The position numbers and the translations under genes are program-made. A model generated the notes under the pieces. That model was not told where the DNA came from and made no database searches. It worked only from the letters and a program-made list of their open reading frames with translations. This document shows positions 11,403 to 21,063 of a stretch of 64,000 nt of DNA, piece by piece; position 1 is the stretch's first letter; every line of letters begins with the position of its first letter. Location of the stretch: assembly GCA_963790805.1 (NCBI GenBank), contig CAWBPL010000002.1, positions 64,696 through 128,695 on the forward strand, in the 5' to 3' direction. The DNA comes from Candidatus Gottesmanbacteria bacterium (GTDB lineage Bacteria; Patescibacteriota; Microgenomatia; UBA10105; UBA927).

Positions 11403-12374
11403 CTATTTACGCGCAATGTCATCCCATTGATAGTTGTTGAAAACCCAGTCAATAAGCTTTTCCGTATCCCCAAATCGATCATCACTATGAAGAACAACTG
11501 TAATAACTCTATGTCCATTTCTCTCAATGAGAGTGATGAGATTCTCACCTGCTTCTTCAGTCCATCCCGTTTTTATACCAGCAACCCCGGGGATTTTACC
11601 TAACAGTTCATTTACATTTTTCAGCGGATAATAATACGTATGCGTAACATCAGATATTGTAATTTGCGGGATAGCGACAATTTTTGCAATCTCTTTATTG
11701 TTTAAGGCAACACTACCGAGTCGTGCTAAATCCATCGGAGTCATTTTGTGATTCGGGTCGTCATACCCAACTGGATTCGTAAAAGTGCTATGTTCCAAAT
11801 GAAGTTCCTTCGCTTTTTTATTCATGGCTTGAACAAATTTATCAACTCCGCCCGGATAATGTTCTGCGAGTGCATATGCTGCGTCGTTTCCTGAATATAC
11901 GAGAGCCCCGTACAAAAGATTTTCGACAGTCATGCGTTCTCCCGAAAATAATCCGATCGCCTGTCCGTCATTCATAACTGTTTTTATAGTTACAACGTCA
12001 TCAAGATTATATGAATCCAATGCAACTAACGCTGTTAAAATCTTCGTCGTTGATGCCGGTGACAATAACTCATTCTCATTGCGTTTATACAGAAAAACTC
12101 CGGAGTCGACGTCTAATACGACAACACCCGTAGCGCTCACTTCTGATCCCGGATAAACGCCGGTTATGTTCGTAGGGTATGGAGCCGGAGTCGGAGCTGA
12201 CAAAAATACCGCTTGAGAGGCTACTTGATCACGCAAGCTTCCATCCGTATAAACGGTCATTCCAGGACTCATGAGAATAAATAACCCGAGGAATACCAAA
12301 AAAACTATTTTATCCCAACGGGTTTTATACCACGGAGGTTTTTGTGTAAATACTGCTCGTTTTTTCTTTGCCAT
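11403..12374 (-). CDS. D-alanyl-D-alanine carboxypeptidase (serine peptidase S11, PBP5-like)
   Basis: SxxK (SPASTTK), SxN (YSGND) and KTG (IKTGWT) motifs, plus an N-terminal anchor. Confidence 0.88.
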   Translation of the reverse strand: MAKKKRAVFTQKPPWYKTRWDKIVFLVFLGLFILMSPGMTVYTDGSLRDQVASQAVFLSAPTPAPYPTNITGVYPGSEVSATGVVVLDVDSGVFLYKRNENELLSPASTTKILTALVALDSYNLDDVVTIKTVMNDGQAIGLFSGERMTVENLLYGALVYSGNDAAYALAEHYPGGVDKFVQAMNKKAKELHLEHSTFTNPVGYDDPNHKMTPMDLARLGSVALNNKEIAKIVAIPQITISDVTHTYYYPLKNVNELLGKIPGVAGIKTGWTEEAGENLITLIERNGHRVITVVLHSDDRFGDTEKLIDWVFNNYQWDDIARK

Positions 12375-14236
12375 TACGCTACCTTTGAATATGCTCCAAT
12401 AATGGGTTTCGCAACTTTTTCATAATCCACTTCCTTAAAACGAATGGATTTATGATGCAATCCGGCGTTAAAAACGACATACTCATTTGTTTTCAATCCG
12501 CTATCCATATATAAAGGTATACCAAAAATATGGCCGAATGGCGGTACGGCGCCAATGGGCACCGATGTCACTTTTACCACTTCTTCCGGCGTCGCCATAC
12601 GCAAATCACGGACACTATAAAGTTTTTTGAATGCTTTCATGTCTACTTTTTGATCACCTGCAACGGCAACCATAATCGGTTTGCCATCAGCATACAGAAC
12701 GAGCGCTTTCGCTCCTTCATGCGGATCGGTATTTCTGACCTTTGCAGCTTCCTCTGAGGTACGGACAGGCTCATGTTCGTACGCTTTGTATTGCACATGC
12801 GCATTTTCAAGCATTGCCACAATTTGATCGTATATGACAGTACCCCCACCCCGTTTGACAGTAAGCGTTAGTCCGATCTCTTTCAATTGGGACTCATCGA
12901 CGATACTCGGCGCATCCATAACGCTTGTTTTACCACCAGACGTCATGGGAAATGCCACAACTTCCCGAAGATAGGGTTCTCCCGTTATAGTCATCAGAAG
13001 TCGTTCGATGCCGTGAGCGAGGCCTCCGTGAGGCGGAGCGCCGAATTCAAACGCCTCCAACATATGTCCGAATTGTTCACGAATTTTTTCTTTACCATAT
13101 CCCATGACCTCAAAAACTGCTTCGAGAACCGCCGCCTCGTGACCTCTAATGCTCCCTCCGCCCACTTCGTAGCCGTTACAAACCAAATCATATTGTGTCG
13201 TTAAAATATTGCCGATGTTCTTTTTTTTCAATAACCAGTCTTTATGTTCCGGCTTCGGGGCGGAAAACGGATTATGGGTAAAAGTCCAGCTCCCGTCATC
13301 CGCTTTTTCAAAAAACGGAAAATCCACAACCCACGCATATGCCAATACGCCGTTTTTTTTGTCCTCCTCACTTCTAAGATCAAATTTATCCGCTCCAAAC
13401 TCTTTCACCGCCTGTGCATACGTATAGACAGGAAACGGTTTTTGCTTTATCGTATATCCCAATTTTTCAATAACAGCAATCATCATTGCTTCGTCAAGCG
13501 CCATCACATCCTCACGCTCCACAAAACTCATTTCAATATCTACCTGCGAATGTTCAAACCCACGGTCAGCGCGCAGATCTTCATCACGCATACAGCGGGC
13601 AATCTGAAAATACCGCTCAAAACCGGCAACCATCAAAAGCTGTTTGTATTGCTGTGGAGATTGAGGAAGAGCGTAAAATTTTCCGGGCTGCAGTCGGGAA
13701 GGTACCAGAAAATCCCGCGATCCCTCAGGAGTCGATTTGGTCAAAAGCGGCGTTTCTATCTCGGTAAAATCCTGAGAAAATAAATATTGCCGGATGAGAT
13801 CAACAAGTTTGGAACGAAGACGGATATTGCGGTTAAGTCGCGGACGCCGAAGATCCAAATACCGGTATTTCAACCGTATGTCTTCGTTGATATCCAATCC
13901 ATCCGTATCGATAGGAAATGGCAATTCTTTTGCCCTATTCAAAATATTCATCGTTTTAACTTCAACCTCTATCGTTCCTGTCGCCAGCTTCGAATTCACC
14001 ATCGCTTCCGGACGCCTTTTAACAGTGCCGAGTACTTCGACGACATCTTCAATGCCAACTTCACCCAAGTCTTTTTGCGAAACCATCTGCACGAGCCCCG
14101 AACGGTCCCGCAGATCTAAAAACATGATTTTCCCGTGATCACGCCGGCTGTTTATCCAGCCTTTGAGAAGTATTTCCTGACCGACTTTTTCGACTGTCTT
14201 AAGAGCTAATGTTCTTTCCATAGATACCTCTATCAT
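12374..14236 (-). CDS. aspS: aspartyl-tRNA synthetase lacking the GAD insertion, fused to a C-terminal YbaK/ProX-like aminoacyl-tRNA deacylase domain
   Basis: N-terminal OB fold and class II motifs (FYALPQSPQQYKQLL, QIARCMRDEDLRADR, GGGSIR, GLAHGIERL). The core ends near aa 460. Residues 466-620 carry YbaK-like GAKALVL and PIGAVPPFGH. Confidence 0.85.
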   Translation of the reverse strand: MIEVSMERTLALKTVEKVGQEILLKGWINSRRDHGKIMFLDLRDRSGLVQMVSQKDLGEVGIEDVVEVLGTVKRRPEAMVNSKLATGTIEVEVKTMNILNRAKELPFPIDTDGLDINEDIRLKYRYLDLRRPRLNRNIRLRSKLVDLIRQYLFSQDFTEIETPLLTKSTPEGSRDFLVPSRLQPGKFYALPQSPQQYKQLLMVAGFERYFQIARCMRDEDLRADRGFEHSQVDIEMSFVEREDVMALDEAMMIAVIEKLGYTIKQKPFPVYTYAQAVKEFGADKFDLRSEEDKKNGVLAYAWVVDFPFFEKADDGSWTFTHNPFSAPKPEHKDWLLKKKNIGNILTTQYDLVCNGYEVGGGSIRGHEAAVLEAVFEVMGYGKEKIREQFGHMLEAFEFGAPPHGGLAHGIERLLMTITGEPYLREVVAFPMTSGGKTSVMDAPSIVDESQLKEIGLTLTVKRGGGTVIYDQIVAMLENAHVQYKAYEHEPVRTSEEAAKVRNTDPHEGAKALVLYADGKPIMVAVAGDQKVDMKAFKKLYSVRDLRMATPEEVVKVTSVPIGAVPPFGHIFGIPLYMDSGLKTNEYVVFNAGLHHKSIRFKEVDYEKVAKPIIGAYSKVA

Positions 14237-14273: not shown

Positions 14274-15344
14274 TTATATTGAAAGAAGGAATTTACGCAA
14301 AATCTGATAGTACGTTTCCAAACTTGAAATGCTTACCCATTCGGAATCGGTATGAGGCCCTTCGCCGACGGGCCCAAACTCTATGCCGGCGGCCTTTGGA
14401 AAATGACGTAAATCCGATGCGCCGTGTTTACTTACAATTTTTGGTTCTTTACCCAATTCTTGCGCCACTATTTTAGACAATCGTTCAACAAACGGATTAC
14501 TTGTATCGGTTGCATGAGCGGGCTCTTGTACCACCATTTCCATGGTTGAACCTGATGGAAGTAGCGATCTAAGAGTTTTTTCAGTTGCCGACAAACCTTC
14601 CTCTGGTATATATCGGACATCCATTCTAAGAAGCGCATCATCAGGAACTTTATTATATGTTTTATTTGTCGTCTCGATACTTGCGACATTTACTGTCGTT
14701 TGCCATGCCTCCCGCTGAGGAATCGGATATTTCTCTTTAACTTGGGTAAGAAATTTCTGAACTGTCCACAATGCGTTATCACCACTCCATGGGTGCGCTC
14801 CATGAGCAGATTTGCCTGTAAAACGAATATTCACCCACAAAATTCCTTTCGCCCGAATTCCTAGTGAAAAATCGCTTGACGTTTCCCCTACTAAAACCAA
14901 CTGCGCCTTTATACCCTGCTCAACTTGATATTTTGTTCCTTTAAATCCTCCTATTTCTTCGTCCGTTACGAGTTGTAAACCGAGAGGATAATGCACCGAT
15001 TTTGCGATATGAGCAAACGCAATAATCTCGGCAGCTGCAGCCGCTTTCATGTCATATGCACCGCGTCCATATAAACGATCTCCGTCAATACGGGGCGTAT
15101 ATTGCTTTTCTTTCGCAGAGACAACATCCACATGCGCATTTAAGATAACTGTAAATTCTTTAGGTATCGTGGGTTGATTAAAAAACAAAAGGCTCTCTAC
15201 GCCGTCTTTCTCAAATTGCTTCACGGTAAACCCATCTAAATATTTTTTCACAACCTCAAGAGCTTTTGAACACTCCTTTAGATCACCCGTCACTGAGGGG
15301 ATGCATATAATATCGGAAGCTAAAGCAATGATTTCATCTTTCAT
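14274..15344 (-). CDS. M20 family metallo-amidohydrolase (ArgE/DapE/N-acyl-amino-acid deacylase-like)
   Basis: NAHVDVV, GRGAYDMK, TDEEIGG and GKSAHGAHP motifs of the M20 family. Confidence 0.85.
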   Translation of the reverse strand: MKDEIIALASDIICIPSVTGDLKECSKALEVVKKYLDGFTVKQFEKDGVESLLFFNQPTIPKEFTVILNAHVDVVSAKEKQYTPRIDGDRLYGRGAYDMKAAAAAEIIAFAHIAKSVHYPLGLQLVTDEEIGGFKGTKYQVEQGIKAQLVLVGETSSDFSLGIRAKGILWVNIRFTGKSAHGAHPWSGDNALWTVQKFLTQVKEKYPIPQREAWQTTVNVASIETTNKTYNKVPDDALLRMDVRYIPEEGLSATEKTLRSLLPSGSTMEMVVQEPAHATDTSNPFVERLSKIVAQELGKEPKIVSKHGASDLRHFPKAAGIEFGPVGEGPHTDSEWVSISSLETYYQILRKFLLSI

Positions 15345-15420
15345 AGGTTACAAAGGATTATAGCAGAAGCAGTCTAGAGAGCAGCTCACAAATCTTTATA
15401 AACAGAACGTGCATTGTCTA

Positions 15421-16530
15421 TTATTCTAATTCTATTTTTTCAACAGTGTAGCGCTGTATTTTTTCTTCGTCTATATCAAATCCCAATCCGGTTTTGGACG
15501 GAACTTCAACAAATCCTTCCTTGTCTACTTTAAAACTATTTATTACCAAATCATCTGAATAAAAAAAGCTTACCGGCGACATGTCTGCGGGATATATATA
15601 ATTCGGAAGACTCGCAACAGCGATATTAAATGCACGCCCGATACCGCTTTCCAGCATCCCACCGCACCAAACCCCGACGCCATGACCTTGACAATAATCA
15701 TGTATCCTTTTGCTTTCAAGAAGACCACCAACTCTCCCGGGTTTAATGTTTATAATTTTGCAAGCACCTAAATATATCGCTCTTCGCGCATCATCAACTG
15801 ATTCGATACTTTCATCCAAACAAATAGGTGTTTCGATCTGTTTTTGAAGTATGGAATGATCGACGATATCATCATCAGCAAGCGGCTGCTCTATCATAAG
15901 TAAATTAAACCGGTCTAACGTTTTCAATGTATCCATGTCATTCAACGTATACGATGAATTTGCATCCACCATGAGAGAGATATCTCCGAATTTTCTTCTG
16001 ATTGCTTTAATAACCGTCACGTCCCATTTTGGTTGAATCTTTATTTTCATCCGTTGAAAACCCTGATCAATCCGCAGTGCTATTTCTTCAAACGTTTCTT
16101 CAATCGTTTTTTTGATACCAATACTCTCACCAACCGCAATTTTCTTTTGCGTACCGCCCAAGAGAGATGAAATTGATTTCTTTTTATTCAAAGAAAGAAT
16201 CATCCACACGGCAGTTTCTAATCCCGTTTTGGCAAAATTGTTTTTCTTAACTGGATTTAATAGACTCACAAGATCTTCAGCTGTCTCAAATTCTTTACCC
16301 AGCACAAGGGGCGCGATATACTGACGGAGAACAAGCATACACATATCTGTCGTTTCCGGTTTATAATACGGGAAAGGTAAAGCCGCTGACTCTCCCCATC
16401 CCACAATTCCATCACTTGTCTCAGCACGAACGATAATTGTGGGCTTTCGTTTCACGGTGCCGAAGCTCGTCGTAAACGAGGTGATCATCGGTATTTCAAC
16501 TTTATATAATGTTATCCGCCGTAATTTCAT
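15421..16530 (-). CDS. enolase-superfamily enzyme, MLE subgroup, N-acylamino acid racemase / o-succinylbenzoate synthase-like
   Basis: Catalytic KxK (MKIKIQPKWD), metal ligands VDAN / IEQPL / CLDES, and a second catalytic Lys in NIKPGRVGG. Confidence 0.85.
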   Translation of the reverse strand: MKLRRITLYKVEIPMITSFTTSFGTVKRKPTIIVRAETSDGIVGWGESAALPFPYYKPETTDMCMLVLRQYIAPLVLGKEFETAEDLVSLLNPVKKNNFAKTGLETAVWMILSLNKKKSISSLLGGTQKKIAVGESIGIKKTIEETFEEIALRIDQGFQRMKIKIQPKWDVTVIKAIRRKFGDISLMVDANSSYTLNDMDTLKTLDRFNLLMIEQPLADDDIVDHSILQKQIETPICLDESIESVDDARRAIYLGACKIINIKPGRVGGLLESKRIHDYCQGHGVGVWCGGMLESGIGRAFNIAVASLPNYIYPADMSPVSFFYSDDLVINSFKVDKEGFVEVPSKTGLGFDIDEEKIQRYTVEKIELE

Positions 16531-18074
16531 GATGATTGCGTTATCGAAACGAAACGACTTTTAATAAGAATTTTCAGCGTATCTTCAATATTTCCGCTAT
16601 GATTCTCCACAAAAGCAATAGCTCTATCCGCTCCGTTTCTTCTGGTTTTTAATACCCACTGAACGTATGCCATAAACGACTGCTCATCGTGAGAAAGACC
16701 TTCCGATGCTATATCAACGAGCTTTCGAGCAAATTCATATACGCTCGTGCCATCCGCTTCTCCTTCTAATCCGTCCCGTATCGCAGCTTCCCTAAGCGCG
16801 CCAAGTTTCTTCCACGGAAAACCATCGATATACGAAACCGCTTTTTGTATATTTTGTAACAGACCGGCTTGAAACGCAGACGGCGCAATCATAGTAGAAT
16901 TCGCAACATCAGCACCTAGTTCCATAAGCTCCTCATCCGGAAAATTGGCCCCCGGATCACGTCCCTCGATATATATGAAGTTGGCAAACTTCCGAAATAT
17001 GTCTTCAACACCATATAATTTTTCTTTCTGACACGCCTCAACAAACTCCAACAGGGGGAAACCCTCATGCTCAAGTCCATAGCGTATACGTGCACCGGTA
17101 AATTGAGCAAACTGCATGGTTTCCATATGAGAAATGACAGGAACAACGTTTAACGACTTTTTTGGCGGAAACGATGAAGACATATCTTTGAGATAATATG
17201 CCCCCCATGAAGGTTTAGATAAATACTCCAACACAGACGGTATCCCCTCAATAAGAAGAATTCTTTCGCCTATACTTTTATATCCGCTCTGCGCATCTTC
17301 CCCCGGCCCCAATACGAAATGAATCCCGCTGTCACCGCCAAACATCCACGTAAAATATTGTGCCATTGTGCGAAACCTCTGTTCGGGAAATCGCGACGTC
17401 CTTCTGTCTCCTTCTACTTTTGCGTGTTTCATCATGCGCGGCCACATCGTGAGACGCGACTCTTTATAGAGAGACCGCTTGCCTTCTTCAAAAGGACTGT
17501 TTCCAAATAAACCGATAAATGCGGCGCCTGCTCCTATAATCACAGAAACCGCATCCGCCGCATTGTCCACTGTCACACCTGTGGCGGGGCTATTTTGTGC
17601 TCTGGCATCAATACCTGCCGCATGATCCCATCCGCGATACCATATGTACGGATACACCCCTTTTGGAGCGACTGCCGTGCTATATGTTTCGTAATCTCTT
17701 TTACCCAAAGGATGAATAGCGAGATTAATGACGGATTTGCCCTCTTTTCGCAAAGCGTTCTGAACACTTGTCAAATCAGTTAACATTTTTTTGTGAAGCT
17801 CAGTAAGCGATGTTGTATATGGTAAAGATGTTTCTACAAGGTTAAATCCGTTATCTAATCCCTGTTCACCCAAATCTTTGCTGACAGTTCCCACAATAAC
17901 CTCGGACTTTAAATCGCTTTTGTGGAATGATTCAAAGGTGCCCCTTTTTTTCGCTTCTACCGCAAGCTCTTGAAAATATTGTTGCGAAACCAAGGCCATT
18001 TCGCCCGTCGCCAGTTCAGCAACAGCTTTTTCCAATTCACCGCCGAATGTTTGAATAGGTATATTTGTTTTCAT
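16527..18074 (-). CDS. glutamate-cysteine ligase family (GCS2-like) ATP-dependent carboxylate-amine ligase
   Basis: FGGELEK, NLVETSLPY, AIHPLG and especially GLFGNSPFEEGK (compare ALFANSPFTEGK of plant-type GCL). The stop overlaps the racemase start (ATGA). Confidence 0.6.
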   Translation of the reverse strand: MKTNIPIQTFGGELEKAVAELATGEMALVSQQYFQELAVEAKKRGTFESFHKSDLKSEVIVGTVSKDLGEQGLDNGFNLVETSLPYTTSLTELHKKMLTDLTSVQNALRKEGKSVINLAIHPLGKRDYETYSTAVAPKGVYPYIWYRGWDHAAGIDARAQNSPATGVTVDNAADAVSVIIGAGAAFIGLFGNSPFEEGKRSLYKESRLTMWPRMMKHAKVEGDRRTSRFPEQRFRTMAQYFTWMFGGDSGIHFVLGPGEDAQSGYKSIGERILLIEGIPSVLEYLSKPSWGAYYLKDMSSSFPPKKSLNVVPVISHMETMQFAQFTGARIRYGLEHEGFPLLEFVEACQKEKLYGVEDIFRKFANFIYIEGRDPGANFPDEELMELGADVANSTMIAPSAFQAGLLQNIQKAVSYIDGFPWKKLGALREAAIRDGLEGEADGTSVYEFARKLVDIASEGLSHDEQSFMAYVQWVLKTRRNGADRAIAFVENHSGNIEDTLKILIKSRFVSITQSS

Positions 18075-18135
18075 TTATTTATCCAGTTTCAGGAGCAAAA
18101 AACTTAAGATAAATTATGTTATCACAAATTGAATC

Positions 18136-18165
18136 TTGACACATTTATGTAATGTATCATACAAT
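18136..18165 (+). promoter_or_regulatory. candidate sigma-70 promoter TTGACA-N18-TACAAT
   Basis: Perfect -35 and near-consensus -10 in the AT-rich divergent region, about 150 nt upstream of the 91-aa ORF. Confidence 0.55.
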
Positions 18166-18284
18166 ATAACCTATAATTATGAATCTGCACGCGAATATAT
18201 GTGTCATTAATTGCCTTAGCCTCCTAATTACGGAGCGGGGCCGCGTGGTGAAGACGTAATAATTTCATTTTTTGTTACCACAAG

Positions 18285-18311
18285 ACCTCCTCTAAACAAG
18301 GAGGTTTTTTT
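18285..18311 (+). terminator. intrinsic-terminator-like hairpin that contains the Shine-Dalgarno sequence of the downstream ORF (attenuator/riboswitch expression platform candidate)
   Basis: ACCTCCT-ctaaaca-AGGAGGT followed by T7. The AGGAGG arm is the only Shine-Dalgarno sequence for the ATG at 18317. Confidence 0.6.
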
Positions 18312-18316
18312 ATGCT

Positions 18317-18592
18317 ATGAAAGAAGTAATACGAGAAGGAAAGAAAGAGATAATAGTTGAAGGAAAAGTTGAAAAAAGGCTCAAACCAATGAGTCAAATA
18401 ACTCTGGAAGTTGAGCAAAAATTAAGTGAACTGGATATATCACCCGATGGTAAAATCCAGGGCGTACGACCAATTACAAGCGGAGCCAATGGTACGCTAC
18501 CGCCAAACAGTGGTTATAAAAAAATCGGCGAAATCAATCTCATCATTGCTCCTCAAGGCAAGGATGCCATAGTAGTTGTCGGAGAAATATAA
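18317..18592 (+). CDS. hypothetical 91-aa protein
   Basis: ORF with Shine-Dalgarno AGGAGG and a charged N-terminus (KEVIREGKKEIIVEGKVEKR). No recognisable motif or TM segment. Confidence 0.5.
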   Translation: MKEVIREGKKEIIVEGKVEKRLKPMSQITLEVEQKLSELDISPDGKIQGVRPITSGANGTLPPNSGYKKIGEINLIIAPQGKDAIVVVGEI

Positions 18593-18756: not shown

Positions 18757-21063
18757 ATGCCAAACGGACCACTTGAGTCAGAACATGCTTCATTGGAATT
18801 AATTCTCCTTATGCACCCAAATGAGGGGGGGATTTTTTCACATCCACGCGAAGAGCGGTACCAAATACACGAATTGATGATCGCGCTATCACAAAAATTC
18901 GGGTATCAGTCACTTCATCTCCTGCGCAATGAACTTTCCGAAATACAAATAACTCAAACCGGAAACTATTTTATCCCTGAAGTGTTACAAAAAAAAGCTG
19001 ACTCAGTTGAAAAAATGTGGGTGGAATCACATGGTCTGGAGTACAGCAAAGATGAGGTTGAAAAAGGCTTTGTTACAGCTGAATCAGTCATAGACTATTT
19101 TACGCAGGGCATATTTAGCGATGTGACTCAGATACAACCAATCAATGAAGTTGCAAGCGCAAGAAAATTTCTTATTTTACTTCATCACGCGCTAAATCAT
19201 CCAGACCCGCACGTTCGATTTGAATCTGCTCGTAAATTGTATGTAACAAATTTGGCATTAGGGGCGGAAAAAATACGAAAAGAAAGTCAGCCGCGCATTG
19301 ACCTGTTTTACAACCTTCTCGACCAGCATATGTTTACAAACCCTAAAACGGAAAGTCCGGAACCCGCGACCACTTTGGAAAATGCCCACTTTATTTCATA
19401 TCATGTCGGAGATGATTTCCGCTGTGGTTTTGTACGAGAATTACAATCCAATGAAAAAATTGATGAGTCTATGATAGGACTCAACATGCGGATTCACACC
19501 GTACCGATGCGAACATGGTACGATAATGACGGCCACGCACATAAAGTGCTCTTTGAACCCAGAGTCAAAGATGCACCTAATTTTATCATCAAGGAATTGC
19601 GAAACAGCACAATGAATGAATTAACTCTTGATGATAATTTGGGAGCGAAACTTACATTTACTTCCCTTCAAGAGGCGGAATTATTTTTCAGTACGCTCCA
19701 ATCAAAAATACCTATTTCACCCCTCATTAGCGACGTACACTATTCAATCCACGAAAATAGCCGATCTCGCGATCGCCATTATAGTGGTCGGCATGCCGCT
19801 TCCTCAAAAAATTTTGAAACTATAAAATATCATACAAGAATATACGGAACGTCATATGAATTTCAGATTAATACCGTTAGAACGTGGATAGATCAAAAAC
19901 TTCGCGATGACGTCTGTTGGGAAGATTATATGGTCAAAAGAATAGTTACTCCGGACAGAAAAGGCCAGACCCCTGTCACCCAACTCCTTTTTCCCAAACA
20001 AATATATGGAATCGACTTGACTGACGCCGCTGATCTAATTCTGAAAGCAGGTCGAGAATATCGAAGACATCTGCCAACCATCATTCCCCCTGAGGTGCGA
20101 CGGAAAGACAGGCTGATACGTATGATGTCATCATCGGAATTGCGCAGCTCTGTTGAGTCTCTTGCAGCTCAGATATTAGAAACAGTAACAACAACGACTC
20201 ATTCGAATCCTGAATCTAAAATTATATACAGCGCTTCACCGAAAGATAATCTTATCTCAAATATGTTCATCGTTATCGCTGAATCGGATCCGGCACGGCT
20301 GGAGTCTTCCGCACAACTTCTGAGCCGGAAACTCGGGCTTCCCCGAAACCATGTTCTATCCACTGCTGAAATCAAAAAAATTCCAAAAACTGCAAAAATA
20401 ATAATATTTGATGACATCTTTGTTCGCGGGAGACAACTTCTCCAAGTTTATAAAAATCTTATGGACGATTACAAATTTCCTGAAAAGTCTCTCTTTGTTG
20501 CAACGATTGTCGCGGATAAACGGGCTACAAAAATGTTTAAAACGGATAGATTCTTCTTCAGCCAGCAAACTAATTCAAGAACTACACGTATAGTATTTCC
20601 TTTTGAAAATGAAAAACGGATGTATAGCAGAAGCTGCGTATTTATTTCTATACGAAAAAACGAATCGAGTAACGCTTCTGAAATACTTATGGAAGTATTA
20701 CCAGATGGCAGACTAAAAATACCCGGTGGTGCAAAAAATAACGGAGAATCACCAAAACGGACAGTAGCAAGAGAGATTTTTGAAGAGCTTGAGCGATACA
20801 TACCACTGAGAGCAATCAAAGGAGTATTTCCAAAAGCGATTATGACCTCTTTTGAACCTCATAATAAACTCACCAAACCATATACTGAATTTATGCTTCA
20901 TGAGGTGTTTCAGATATCCTCTTCATTATTTTCGGGGGATCTCCCGAAAGGATTTCAATGGATAGATATGAAAAAGGTATTGCAATATCTCCGTTGGAGC
21001 GGACAAAAAGAACTATGGCTTCATCTTATAGAAGAGAATATCATTCATCTTAACGATAACTAA
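18757..21063 (+). CDS. multidomain protein: unknown N-terminal region + RelA/SpoT-like (RSH synthetase-fold) domain + phosphoribosyltransferase-like domain + Nudix hydrolase domain
   Basis: Residues ~270-395: LDDNLGAKLTF, KNFETIKYHTRIYG and YEFQINTVRTW resemble the RSH synthetase motifs. Residues ~455-600: PRT-like fold with KIIIFDDIFVRGRQL. Residues ~620-760: Nudix box GAKNNGESPKRTVAREIFEEL after LKIPGG. Confidence 0.6.
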   Translation: MPNGPLESEHASLELILLMHPNEGGIFSHPREERYQIHELMIALSQKFGYQSLHLLRNELSEIQITQTGNYFIPEVLQKKADSVEKMWVESHGLEYSKDEVEKGFVTAESVIDYFTQGIFSDVTQIQPINEVASARKFLILLHHALNHPDPHVRFESARKLYVTNLALGAEKIRKESQPRIDLFYNLLDQHMFTNPKTESPEPATTLENAHFISYHVGDDFRCGFVRELQSNEKIDESMIGLNMRIHTVPMRTWYDNDGHAHKVLFEPRVKDAPNFIIKELRNSTMNELTLDDNLGAKLTFTSLQEAELFFSTLQSKIPISPLISDVHYSIHENSRSRDRHYSGRHAASSKNFETIKYHTRIYGTSYEFQINTVRTWIDQKLRDDVCWEDYMVKRIVTPDRKGQTPVTQLLFPKQIYGIDLTDAADLILKAGREYRRHLPTIIPPEVRRKDRLIRMMSSSELRSSVESLAAQILETVTTTTHSNPESKIIYSASPKDNLISNMFIVIAESDPARLESSAQLLSRKLGLPRNHVLSTAEIKKIPKTAKIIIFDDIFVRGRQLLQVYKNLMDDYKFPEKSLFVATIVADKRATKMFKTDRFFFSQQTNSRTTRIVFPFENEKRMYSRSCVFISIRKNESSNASEILMEVLPDGRLKIPGGAKNNGESPKRTVAREIFEELERYIPLRAIKGVFPKAIMTSFEPHNKLTKPYTEFMLHEVFQISSSLFSGDLPKGFQWIDMKKVLQYLRWSGQKELWLHLIEENIIHLNDN

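Follow-up and report, generated by a model that had tools for sequence, protein, structure and literature searches.

The 64,000-nucleotide stretch of DNA analyzed here, which we refer to as the window, comes from a Candidatus Gottesmanbacteria bacterium (contig CAWBPL010000002.1, positions 64,696 to 128,695) and carries an operon of three genes encoding a ligase of the GCS2, or glutamate-cysteine ligase (GCL), superfamily, an enolase-superfamily enzyme of the subfamily that holds N-succinylamino acid racemases (NSAR) and o-succinylbenzoate synthases (OSBS), and an M20 hydrolase (Table 1). In this locus and in related loci of the ultrasmall bacteria of the Candidate Phyla Radiation (CPR), the ligase stands where relatives of the racemase from elsewhere can have a GNAT acyltransferase, an exchange that suggests an ATP-driven route for inverting the stereochemistry of amino acids. 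An initial annotation of the window had described three co-directional genes, a stop/start overlap between the first two, a gap before the third and a set of family motifs, and all of these were recovered: open reading frames (ORFs) lie at exactly the positions in Table 1, all on the minus strand, the overlap and the gap are read directly in the sequence, and every motif is present in the translations. The overlap reads ...tcatcATGAaat..., the ligase contains the GCL-family motif GLFGNSPFEEGK, the racemase contains KIKIQP, VDAN, IEQP, LDES and NIKPGRVGG, and the M20 protein contains HVDVV, GRGAYDMK and TDEEIGG. In the database record of the source genome the racemase is called from Met15, as a protein of 355 residues, and this shorter call hides the overlap with the ligase. 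Since the first 14 residues of the longer form are conserved among homologues and line up with residues 1-14 of the characterized structure 1sja, the 369-residue start, and hence the overlap, is on alignment grounds the better call. No terminator-like site was found on the minus strand inside the operon. Upstream of it on the same strand, two weak sigma-70-like matches (18183-18156 and 18142-18113) are no better than expected by chance for the region, and a search for Rfam riboswitches and T-boxes ahead of the operon in the window gave none.

Table 1. Positions of the operon and of adjoining features in the window.
Feature	Coordinates	Strand	Remarks
GCS2-superfamily ligase	16527..18074	minus	515 aa; proposed N-acylating, probably gamma-glutamylating, enzyme
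NSAR/OSBS-subfamily enolase-superfamily enzyme	15421..16530	minus	369 aa; proposed N-acyl-amino-acid racemase
M20 dimetallo-hydrolase, ArgE/DapE type	14274..15344	minus	356 aa; proposed N-acyl-amino-acid deacylase
ATGA overlap of ligase stop and racemase start	16527..16530	minus	read in the sequence; translational coupling
Spacer between racemase and M20 gene, 76 nt	15345..15420	minus	TATAAT-like hexamer (gctataat) about 20 nt before the M20 ATG
Non-coding region upstream of the operon	18075..18316	minus	common to a divergent gene pair; likely promoter region
AspRS fused to a tRNA-editing domain	12374-14236	minus	downstream of the M20 gene
S11 D-Ala-D-Ala carboxypeptidase	11403-12374	minus	two genes downstream of the operon

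The second gene of the operon belongs to the NSAR/OSBS subfamily, scoring 354.9 bits against TIGR01928 (cut-off 200.65) and matching the Pfam domains MR_MLE_N and MR_MLE_C, the latter at 2.5e-48. Its best match in the Protein Data Bank (PDB) is the Amycolatopsis NSAR/OSBS enzyme 1sja (5.9e-91), with 7s8w, 1wuf, 1r0m and 2zc8 as further NSAR/OSBS relatives. Scores against models of neighboring functions are low, with 97 bits against the DgcA model (cut-off 400) and 97 and 76 bits against two models of L-Ala-D/L-Glu epimerases (AEE; cut-offs 500 and 343, respectively). The KxK motif (K162/K164), the metal ligands D189, E214 and D239, the second catalytic lysine K263, the second-shell arginine R266 and G291 are all present and are invariant in 18 ligase-linked homologues. 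Judged from these alignments, the enzyme keeps every catalytic residue of characterized NSARs, including R266, which has been described as favoring racemase activity in the subfamily (PMC12006748). The subfamily is bifunctional in that one active site also carries out the OSBS dehydration (PMC12006748), and NSARs accept many N-acyl groups (PMC7431475). No men genes were found among the window neighbors or in the CPR loci whose neighbors were typed, and the protein falls into the ligase-linked clade described below, both of which uphold its initial assignment as something other than a men-linked OSBS.

Several residues distinguish the ligase-linked racemases from their relatives, namely E135, L51, F301 and the set Y313/A315/M317/P319. 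Position 135 is Glu throughout the ligase-linked clade and Val or Ile in all 71 other sequences, while Y313, A315, M317 and P319 flank D316 and S318. Through the numbering offset between YkfB and NSARs (K268 of YkfB for K263; PMC5808125), D316 and S318 match the sites that in dipeptide epimerases hold the N-terminal portion of the substrate, and the clade-specific residues flanking them would fit a changed acyl subsite. E135 co-varies with the clade-specific E149 and R153 in the adjacent helix. It was considered as a binder of the ammonium group of a gamma-glutamyl substituent and was not used as evidence, given that a residue co-varying with E149/R153 may be structural.

The first gene of the operon is considerably more divergent from characterized proteins. 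Pfam recognizes GCS2 (PF04107) at 33.2 bits (cut-off 21) over residues 79-216 only, and in NCBIfam the ligase matches only TIGR02050, with 16.2 of the 176.4 bits that the cut-off demands, which leaves it far below every curated cut-off for GCL, EgtA and YbdK (TIGR01436, TIGR03444 and TIGR02050). More distant relatives likewise score far under the curated cut-offs, with plant GCL and EgtA as their nearest models. A PDB search with the single sequence returned nothing at E<=1, and a profile of 30 homologues matched only plant-type GCL (2gwc/6gmo, 3e-9). An AlphaFold2 (AF2) model with a predicted local distance difference test (pLDDT) score of 93.8 gave plant GCL 2gwc as the top Foldseek match (TM-score 0.65/0.76, 6e-16, 16% identity), followed at lower ranks by YbdK, E. 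coli GshA, GshF, yeast GCL and glutamine synthetases. E13, E15, E81, E370 and R372 are invariant in the 30 homologues and H121 is present in at least 90% of them. This ExE/E/H/ExR pattern is predicted to be the metal- and ATP-binding set, and with it kept the enzyme is expected to be active in catalysis. When 1.84 billion cluster representatives were searched exhaustively with HMMER, only 85 matched at E<=1e-30 and 607 at E<=1e-3; given so few homologues and scores under all cut-offs, the family is a small, uncharacterized and separate branch of the GCS2/GCL superfamily.

The ligase thus shares its fold with plant GCL (2gwc), YbdK and EgtA, and has in common with them the ExE, E and ExR metal/ATP residues and an NSPF(x)EGK motif, but it is some 60-70 residues longer, and its partner is a racemase rather than a glutathione synthetase. 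Neither a glutathione synthetase nor an ergothioneine-gene partner was found in the window or in related loci. The view that this is no ordinary glutamate-cysteine ligase, already implicit in the initial annotation, therefore agrees with the profile scores, with the 16% identity to plant GCL and with the lack of a nearby glutathione synthetase. Homologues of the ligase in Achromobacter, Bordetella, Azospirillum, Telmatospirillum and other proteobacteria (L004, L021-L083) form a branch with different surroundings. Downstream of the ligase in this branch (e.g. L004:6163-14245) lie genes for a dCache-HAMP-SpoIIE phosphatase, an ABC substrate-binding protein and an MFS transporter, and in L004 the ligase is preceded by STAS and anti-sigma-kinase-like genes and sits beside type III secretion export genes. 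This context suggests a different, possibly signaling-linked, role for the proteobacterial branch.

The third protein matches Peptidase_M20 (1.2e-24) and M20_dimer (5.2e-14) in Pfam, scores 174.7 bits against TIGR01910 (cut-off 217.6) and lies well under the cut-offs of all DapE and ArgE equivalogs; its best PDB match is 2rb7, an uncharacterized M20 protein (2e-34). H71, D73, D98, E129, E130, H181, R244 and H331 are invariant in 16 operon-linked M20 proteins. Mapped onto the DapE residue numbers, these positions amount to a complete dimetal and catalytic set together with an invariant lid Arg and His. For the Glu that acts as fifth ligand in DapE, the window protein has its counterpart in a GETSS motif, and this residue is not invariant across the 16 sequences.

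Conservation of the gene neighborhood argues that the three proteins act together. Loci were collected with a ligase-profile scan of one genome per species and examined by tblastn and ORF clustering, and four direct contig look-ups and one metagenomic locus (L084) were added to the set. In 21 of the 23 assessable CPR/Oligoflexia loci the ligase is immediately followed by the racemase on the same strand, and in one more (L013) a single gene separates the two, so that the order ligase then racemase holds in 22 of 23; L019 is the only assessable locus that lacks a racemase. The two genes usually overlap or lie no more than about 10 nt apart, and the hosts comprise Levy-, Davies-, Woese- and Amesbacteria, Paceibacterota, Saccharimonadales and one Oligoflexia metagenome-assembled genome (MAG). 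Of 21 assessable related loci, 19 have an M20 gene, in many cases on the opposite strand, and the encoded proteins represent two or more lineages (one with 46-57% and another with 24-32% identity to the window M20), which looks like non-orthologous replacement of a needed step. These counts bear out the initial proposal of a joint pathway insofar as it required the neighborhood to be conserved. Roughly 55 proteobacterial ligase homologues (33-40% identity) have neither a racemase nor an M20 gene beside them. In the literature, no text was found that linked NSAR/OSBS to a GCS2-type ligase or the ligase-racemase-M20 module to CPR bacteria, and no prior description of the system was found.

Relatives of the racemase from outside the CPR provide the converse comparison. 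A metagenome scan with the racemase alignment listed 80 loci and is biased towards non-CPR NSAR/OSBS enzymes; the same scan with the single racemase sequence found no relatives. Among the matches listed, all 79 non-CPR racemase loci (42-49% identical) are without the ligase, and L084, a CPR-type locus with a 56% identical racemase, is the only one with ligase, racemase and M20. In a neighbor-joining tree of 97 sequences all ligase-linked racemases form a single clade inside NSAR/OSBS, the sister of which is L085, a locus cut short by the contig end immediately before its racemase. Within two genes of the racemase, a GNAT is found in 28 and an M20 gene in 18 of 73 non-CPR loci among the matches listed, and full M20-GNAT-NSAR operons occur, for example, in L086, L087, L090, L091 and L112. 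The GNAT partners are 244-306 residues long, all 12 members checked match PF00583, and their profile matches acetyltransferases in the PDB. The M20-GNAT-NSAR operons come from soil metagenomes (L086-L123; e.g. L087:4004-7107 and L091:3883-7107), where MazG, EamA transporter and rhomboid genes are frequent neighbors and where the GNAT of about 270 residues had no match at E<=0.001 in single-sequence Pfam scans.

A hidden Markov model (HMM) of the GNAT partner detected no GNAT adjoining any CPR racemase, its sole match in the CPR loci being a generic GNAT some 6.4 kb upstream of the ligase in L015. With GNAT and M20 genes beside non-CPR racemases and the ligase beside the CPR-type ones, the comparative picture points to a swap of the acylating enzyme, GNAT in one case and a GCL-fold ligase in the other, around a conserved racemase and deacylase. 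The replacement of the GNAT by a ligase, proposed at first from the window alone, is thereby strengthened.

We give an even chance to the reading that the operon encodes an ATP-driven, acylate-racemize-deacylate stereo-inversion in which N-acylation, probably gamma-glutamylation, replaces the use of succinyl-CoA. In the first step the GCL-fold ligase would spend ATP to activate a carboxylate as its acyl phosphate and attach it to a free amino acid through the alpha-amino group, and the resulting N-acyl amino acid would be comparable to N-succinyl-amino acids; the donor would most likely be the gamma-carboxyl of L-glutamate, with succinate or the beta-carboxyl of aspartate as alternatives. In the second step, for which the strong homology to NSARs is the guide, the racemase would bind the alpha-carboxylate on Mg2+ and use K164 and K263 to racemize the alpha-carbon of the N-acylated residue. 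In the third, by precedent, the M20 deacylase would hydrolyze one enantiomer, most likely the L form, freeing the amino acid and recycling the acyl donor. Overall, a D-amino acid would be converted irreversibly to its L form for one ATP, which could serve the salvage or detoxification of D-amino acids in an amino-acid-auxotrophic epibiont.

The choice of glutamate as donor follows from analogy. To our knowledge, all characterized members of the GCL superfamily activate the gamma-carboxyl of glutamate, and a gamma-glutamyl group resembles the succinyl group that NSARs prefer while tolerating many other N-acyl groups; on this basis the gamma-carboxyl of glutamate is the most likely donor. Class-I amidotransferase or Peptidase_C26-type enzymes cleave gamma-glutamyl amides, and stand-alone genes of this type are inserted in two of the operons, in one case between ligase and racemase and overlapping each of them by 4 nt (L013:7433-8239) and in the other after the racemase (L026:10634-11605). 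These genes are a further hint of a gamma-glutamyl tag, and their products could be gamma-glutamyl hydrolases or ammonia donors for the ligase. The direction of the conversion is most likely D to L, because both known precedents run that way and because characterized M20 deacylases (ArgE, DapE, aminoacylase-1 and the Geobacillus L-succinylase) act, as far as we know, on N-acyl-L-amino acids. CPR bacteria are generally described as lacking a tricarboxylic acid (TCA) cycle; succinyl-CoA would therefore be unavailable to them, and a ligase in place of a CoA-dependent GNAT makes biological sense.

Several considerations weigh against this proposal. GCL-type ligases normally take L-amino acceptors, and the D-to-L route needs a D-selective ligase, for which the GCL fold offers no known precedent. 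The stereospecificity of the M20 enzyme is assumed by analogy, and the hydrolase of the Geobacillus pathway presumably belongs to an M20 subfamily other than the DapE/ArgE type. Both the carboxylate and the amine substrate of the ligase are guesses from its fold. Arg220 of plant GCL aligns to Val or Ile throughout the ligase family under a numbering offset of +65, set from the dimer-interface residues listed in PMC6463388, and in plant GCL this arginine contacts the acceptor end of the pocket (PMC6463388); because of its replacement, the acceptor site of the window enzyme appears to be remodeled relative to plant GCL. E135 of the racemase may be structural, forming for example a salt bridge with R153, and need make no contact with the substrate. 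Finally, accessory genes in other loci, which are taken up below, could mean that in some lineages the core is embedded in a larger pathway.

The proposed logic has close precedents. PMC12006748, citing Sakai et al. (2006), describes an irreversible D-to-L conversion in Geobacillus kaustophilus, built from a GNAT succinyl-CoA:D-amino acid N-succinyltransferase, an N-succinylamino acid racemase and an M20 N-succinyl-L-amino acid hydrolase. The window racemase is of the same NSAR/OSBS subfamily with identical catalytic residues, and the M20 deacylase in the operon and the sequence of tagging, racemizing and untagging are alike; in contrast, the window operon has neither a GNAT nor a CoA thioester, an ATP-dependent GCL-fold ligase takes the acylating position, the M20 protein is ArgE/DapE-like, the acyl group is probably not succinyl, and the hosts are CPR bacteria. 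D-glutamate catabolism by DgcN-DgcA likewise couples acylation, by an N-acetyltransferase, to D-to-L racemization by an enolase-superfamily N-acetyl-D-Glu racemase (PMC10845958), but there the acyl donor is acetyl-CoA, no ligase takes part, and the window racemase falls far under the DgcA cut-off. The L-Ala-D/L-Glu dipeptide epimerases YcjG and YkfB, linked to hydrolases in murein-peptide recycling (PMC5808125), are enzymes of the muconate-lactonizing-enzyme subgroup that similarly epimerize the C-terminal residue of an N-acylated (peptidyl) amino acid, whereas the window enzyme groups with NSAR/OSBS and has D316/S318 in place of the DxD pair that binds the ammonium group in AEE. MurD2 and MurL of Xanthomonas also perform an ATP-dependent ligation before epimerization and invert the stereocenter on the conjugate (PMC5808125); the proteins, a Mur ligase and MurL, are however unrelated, act on a UDP-MurNAc peptide and are not followed by a hydrolase. 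The operon is best filed as an ATP- and ligase-dependent, CPR-specific form, which would be new, of the known acylate-racemize-deacylate stereo-inversion.

If correct, this interpretation would add a third way of installing the N-acyl handle required by enolase-superfamily racemases, with ATP and a free carboxylate in place of the succinyl-CoA and acetyl-CoA of the two known routes, and would provide a small, uncharacterized branch of the glutamate-cysteine-ligase superfamily with its first assigned function. It would also correct a misannotation, likely systematic, by which these genes are called 'o-succinylbenzoate synthase', 'glutamate-cysteine ligase family protein' and 'DapE/ArgE' in hosts that are not expected to make menaquinone or glutathione, and would offer insight into how amino-acid-auxotrophic epibionts without a TCA cycle handle D-amino acids from the walls of their hosts. 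The enzymes could furthermore serve the dynamic kinetic resolution of amino acids without CoA thioesters. A far-reaching version, which we put forward as speculation with little probability behind it, would make the ligase a new functional class of GCL-fold gamma-glutamyl (or succinyl) D-/L-amino-acid synthetases, the racemase clade the first natural gamma-glutamyl-amino-acid racemases and the whole an ATP-powered 'traceless tag', which in its boldest form would be the sole source of a peptidoglycan D-amino acid in place of Alr or MurI.

The same enzymes could instead run from L to D, with the ligase acylating an L-amino acid, the racemase equilibrating it and a D-selective hydrolase releasing a peptidoglycan D-amino acid (D-Ala, D-Glu or a cross-bridge D-diamino acid) as an ATP-driven substitute for Alr or MurI. 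We consider this unlikely: known M20 deacylases are L-specific, and the D-acylases and D-succinylases known to us have other folds. The L-acceptor preference of GCL-type ligases would suit such a direction, yet the racemase has no clade-specific basic residue for a Glu side chain. Wall enzymes lie close by, including the S11 DD-carboxypeptidase downstream of the window operon, which is the PBP5-like carboxypeptidase that the initial annotation had placed nearby, and genes for penicillin-binding proteins (PBP) or beta-lactamase-like proteins near the module in L012, L003 and L020. A ligate-then-epimerize route to D-Glu does exist in Xanthomonas MurD2/MurL (PMC5808125), but the title of reference 104 in PMC11974145 reports active MurI from at least one CPR bacterium. 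The earlier suggestion that D-Glu might be made here without a classical racemase found no support and is weakened by that reported activity, to the extent that a title conveys it (PMC11974145). Motif scans for MurI, Alr and Ddl found nothing in the window and about 30 CPR loci, which cover only a small part of each genome.

Accessory genes raise a further alternative, in which ligase and racemase make a small molecule with a D-residue, such as a gamma-glutamyl-D-amino acid, as the end product or an intermediate of a larger lineage-specific pathway, with the M20 protein, pyridoxal phosphate (PLP) enzymes, the CPR-specific proteins c8 and c27 and a radical-SAM-like protein acting before or after them. 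Many loci indeed carry extra operonic genes for class-III and class-I/II PLP enzymes, a PLP decarboxylase, c8, c27 or the radical-SAM-like protein, and some of these recur: the gene immediately before the ligase is c8 in 10 loci and a class-III aminotransferase in 3, a HisC/CobD-like PLP enzyme stands between racemase and M20 in L009 and L017, and an enzyme resembling PanP/diaminobutyrate (DABA) decarboxylase occurs in 3 loci. Ligase and racemase are moreover the invariant core of the module, while the M20 gene varies in lineage, position and strand. Such a pathway nevertheless seems doubtful to us, because the window and several other loci hold the bare trio with no accessory genes, so that the core must work alone, because the accessory sets differ between lineages, and because the parallel GNAT-NSAR-M20 operons of relatives argue for a self-contained loop.

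It is also conceivable, at rather low probability, that the enolase-superfamily enzyme performs other enolate chemistry on the ligase product, such as beta-elimination, dehydration or cycloisomerization. The beta8 loop and the 50s loop are where the clade-specific substitutions concentrate, and the NSAR/OSBS active site is already capable of the OSBS dehydration (PMC12006748), but both lysines and the racemase-favoring R266 (PMC12006748) are invariant. The nearest relatives among the matches listed, furthermore, sit in GNAT/M20 operons of the racemase type. That the three genes are merely adjacent and have unrelated ordinary functions (a thiol-making glutamate-cysteine ligase, a menaquinone o-succinylbenzoate synthase and DapE/ArgE), as automated annotation would name them from PF04107, from the TIGR01928 'o-succinylbenzoate synthase' equivalog above cut-off and from likeness to DapE/ArgE, is very improbable given that their linkage is conserved and translationally coupled across deep lineages, that the ligase and the M20 protein fall under the cut-offs for those functions, that scans of the window and of the related loci examined found no men, gshB, dap or arg genes, and that CPR bacteria are generally without quinones and respiratory chains.

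Some of the accessory proteins merit description in their own right. Protein c8 is 420-960 residues long and CPR-specific (L001:5313-6992, L012:4348-5994, L010:5477-7996), and c27, of about 330 residues and likewise CPR-specific, lies between racemase and M20 in 4 loci (e.g. L005:10794-11735, L007:4433-5479). Neither has a Pfam or NCBIfam match, and word-indexed searches with c8 returned only 3-4 homologues; an AF2 model of c8 from a shallow alignment reached a pLDDT of 44.8. The two share the motif YAAIHPxxFGD ... IGGxPExxF and are probably distant homologues. The radical-SAM-like protein between racemase and M20 (L011:10689-11627, L016:2606-3880) has a CX3CX2C motif and a weak match to the NirJ family. 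A SAM riboswitch in L024 belongs to metK and not to the operon.

Eight MAG records in the set (L005, L006, L007, L008, L010, L013, L016 and L019) are labeled Weeksellaceae, Micrarchaeia archaeon or 'uncultured Gammaproteobacteria' and have a CPR-type neighborhood of c8, ligase, racemase and M20. Their ligases are mostly 49-61% identical to that of the window, with L019, which is without a racemase, at 42%. The taxonomic labels of these bins are probably wrong.

Around the operon, the window carries genes for Era, GluRS, AspRS, the S11 peptidase, RecJ, the CCA-adding enzyme and SecDF. AspRS and the S11 peptidase were considered as part of the operon unit and are treated as lineage synteny, since they recur only in L012 and there in divergent orientation. 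The AspRS is without the bacterial GAD insertion, its catalytic domain being matched contiguously over residues 117-432, and its C-terminus is a tRNA-editing domain of the YbaK/ProX type (residues 488-607, PF04073 at 2e-31) with 3op6 and the Thermus trans-editing enzyme TTHA1699 as best PDB matches; this fusion of AspRS to an editing domain is unusual. Divergent from the operon, a gene on the plus strand (18757-21063) encodes a 768-residue protein whose N-terminal residues, about 450 in number, match no family and are followed by a PRTase-CE domain (PF24390) and a weakly NUDIX-like C-terminus. A 91-residue ORF (18317-18592) precedes this divergent gene.

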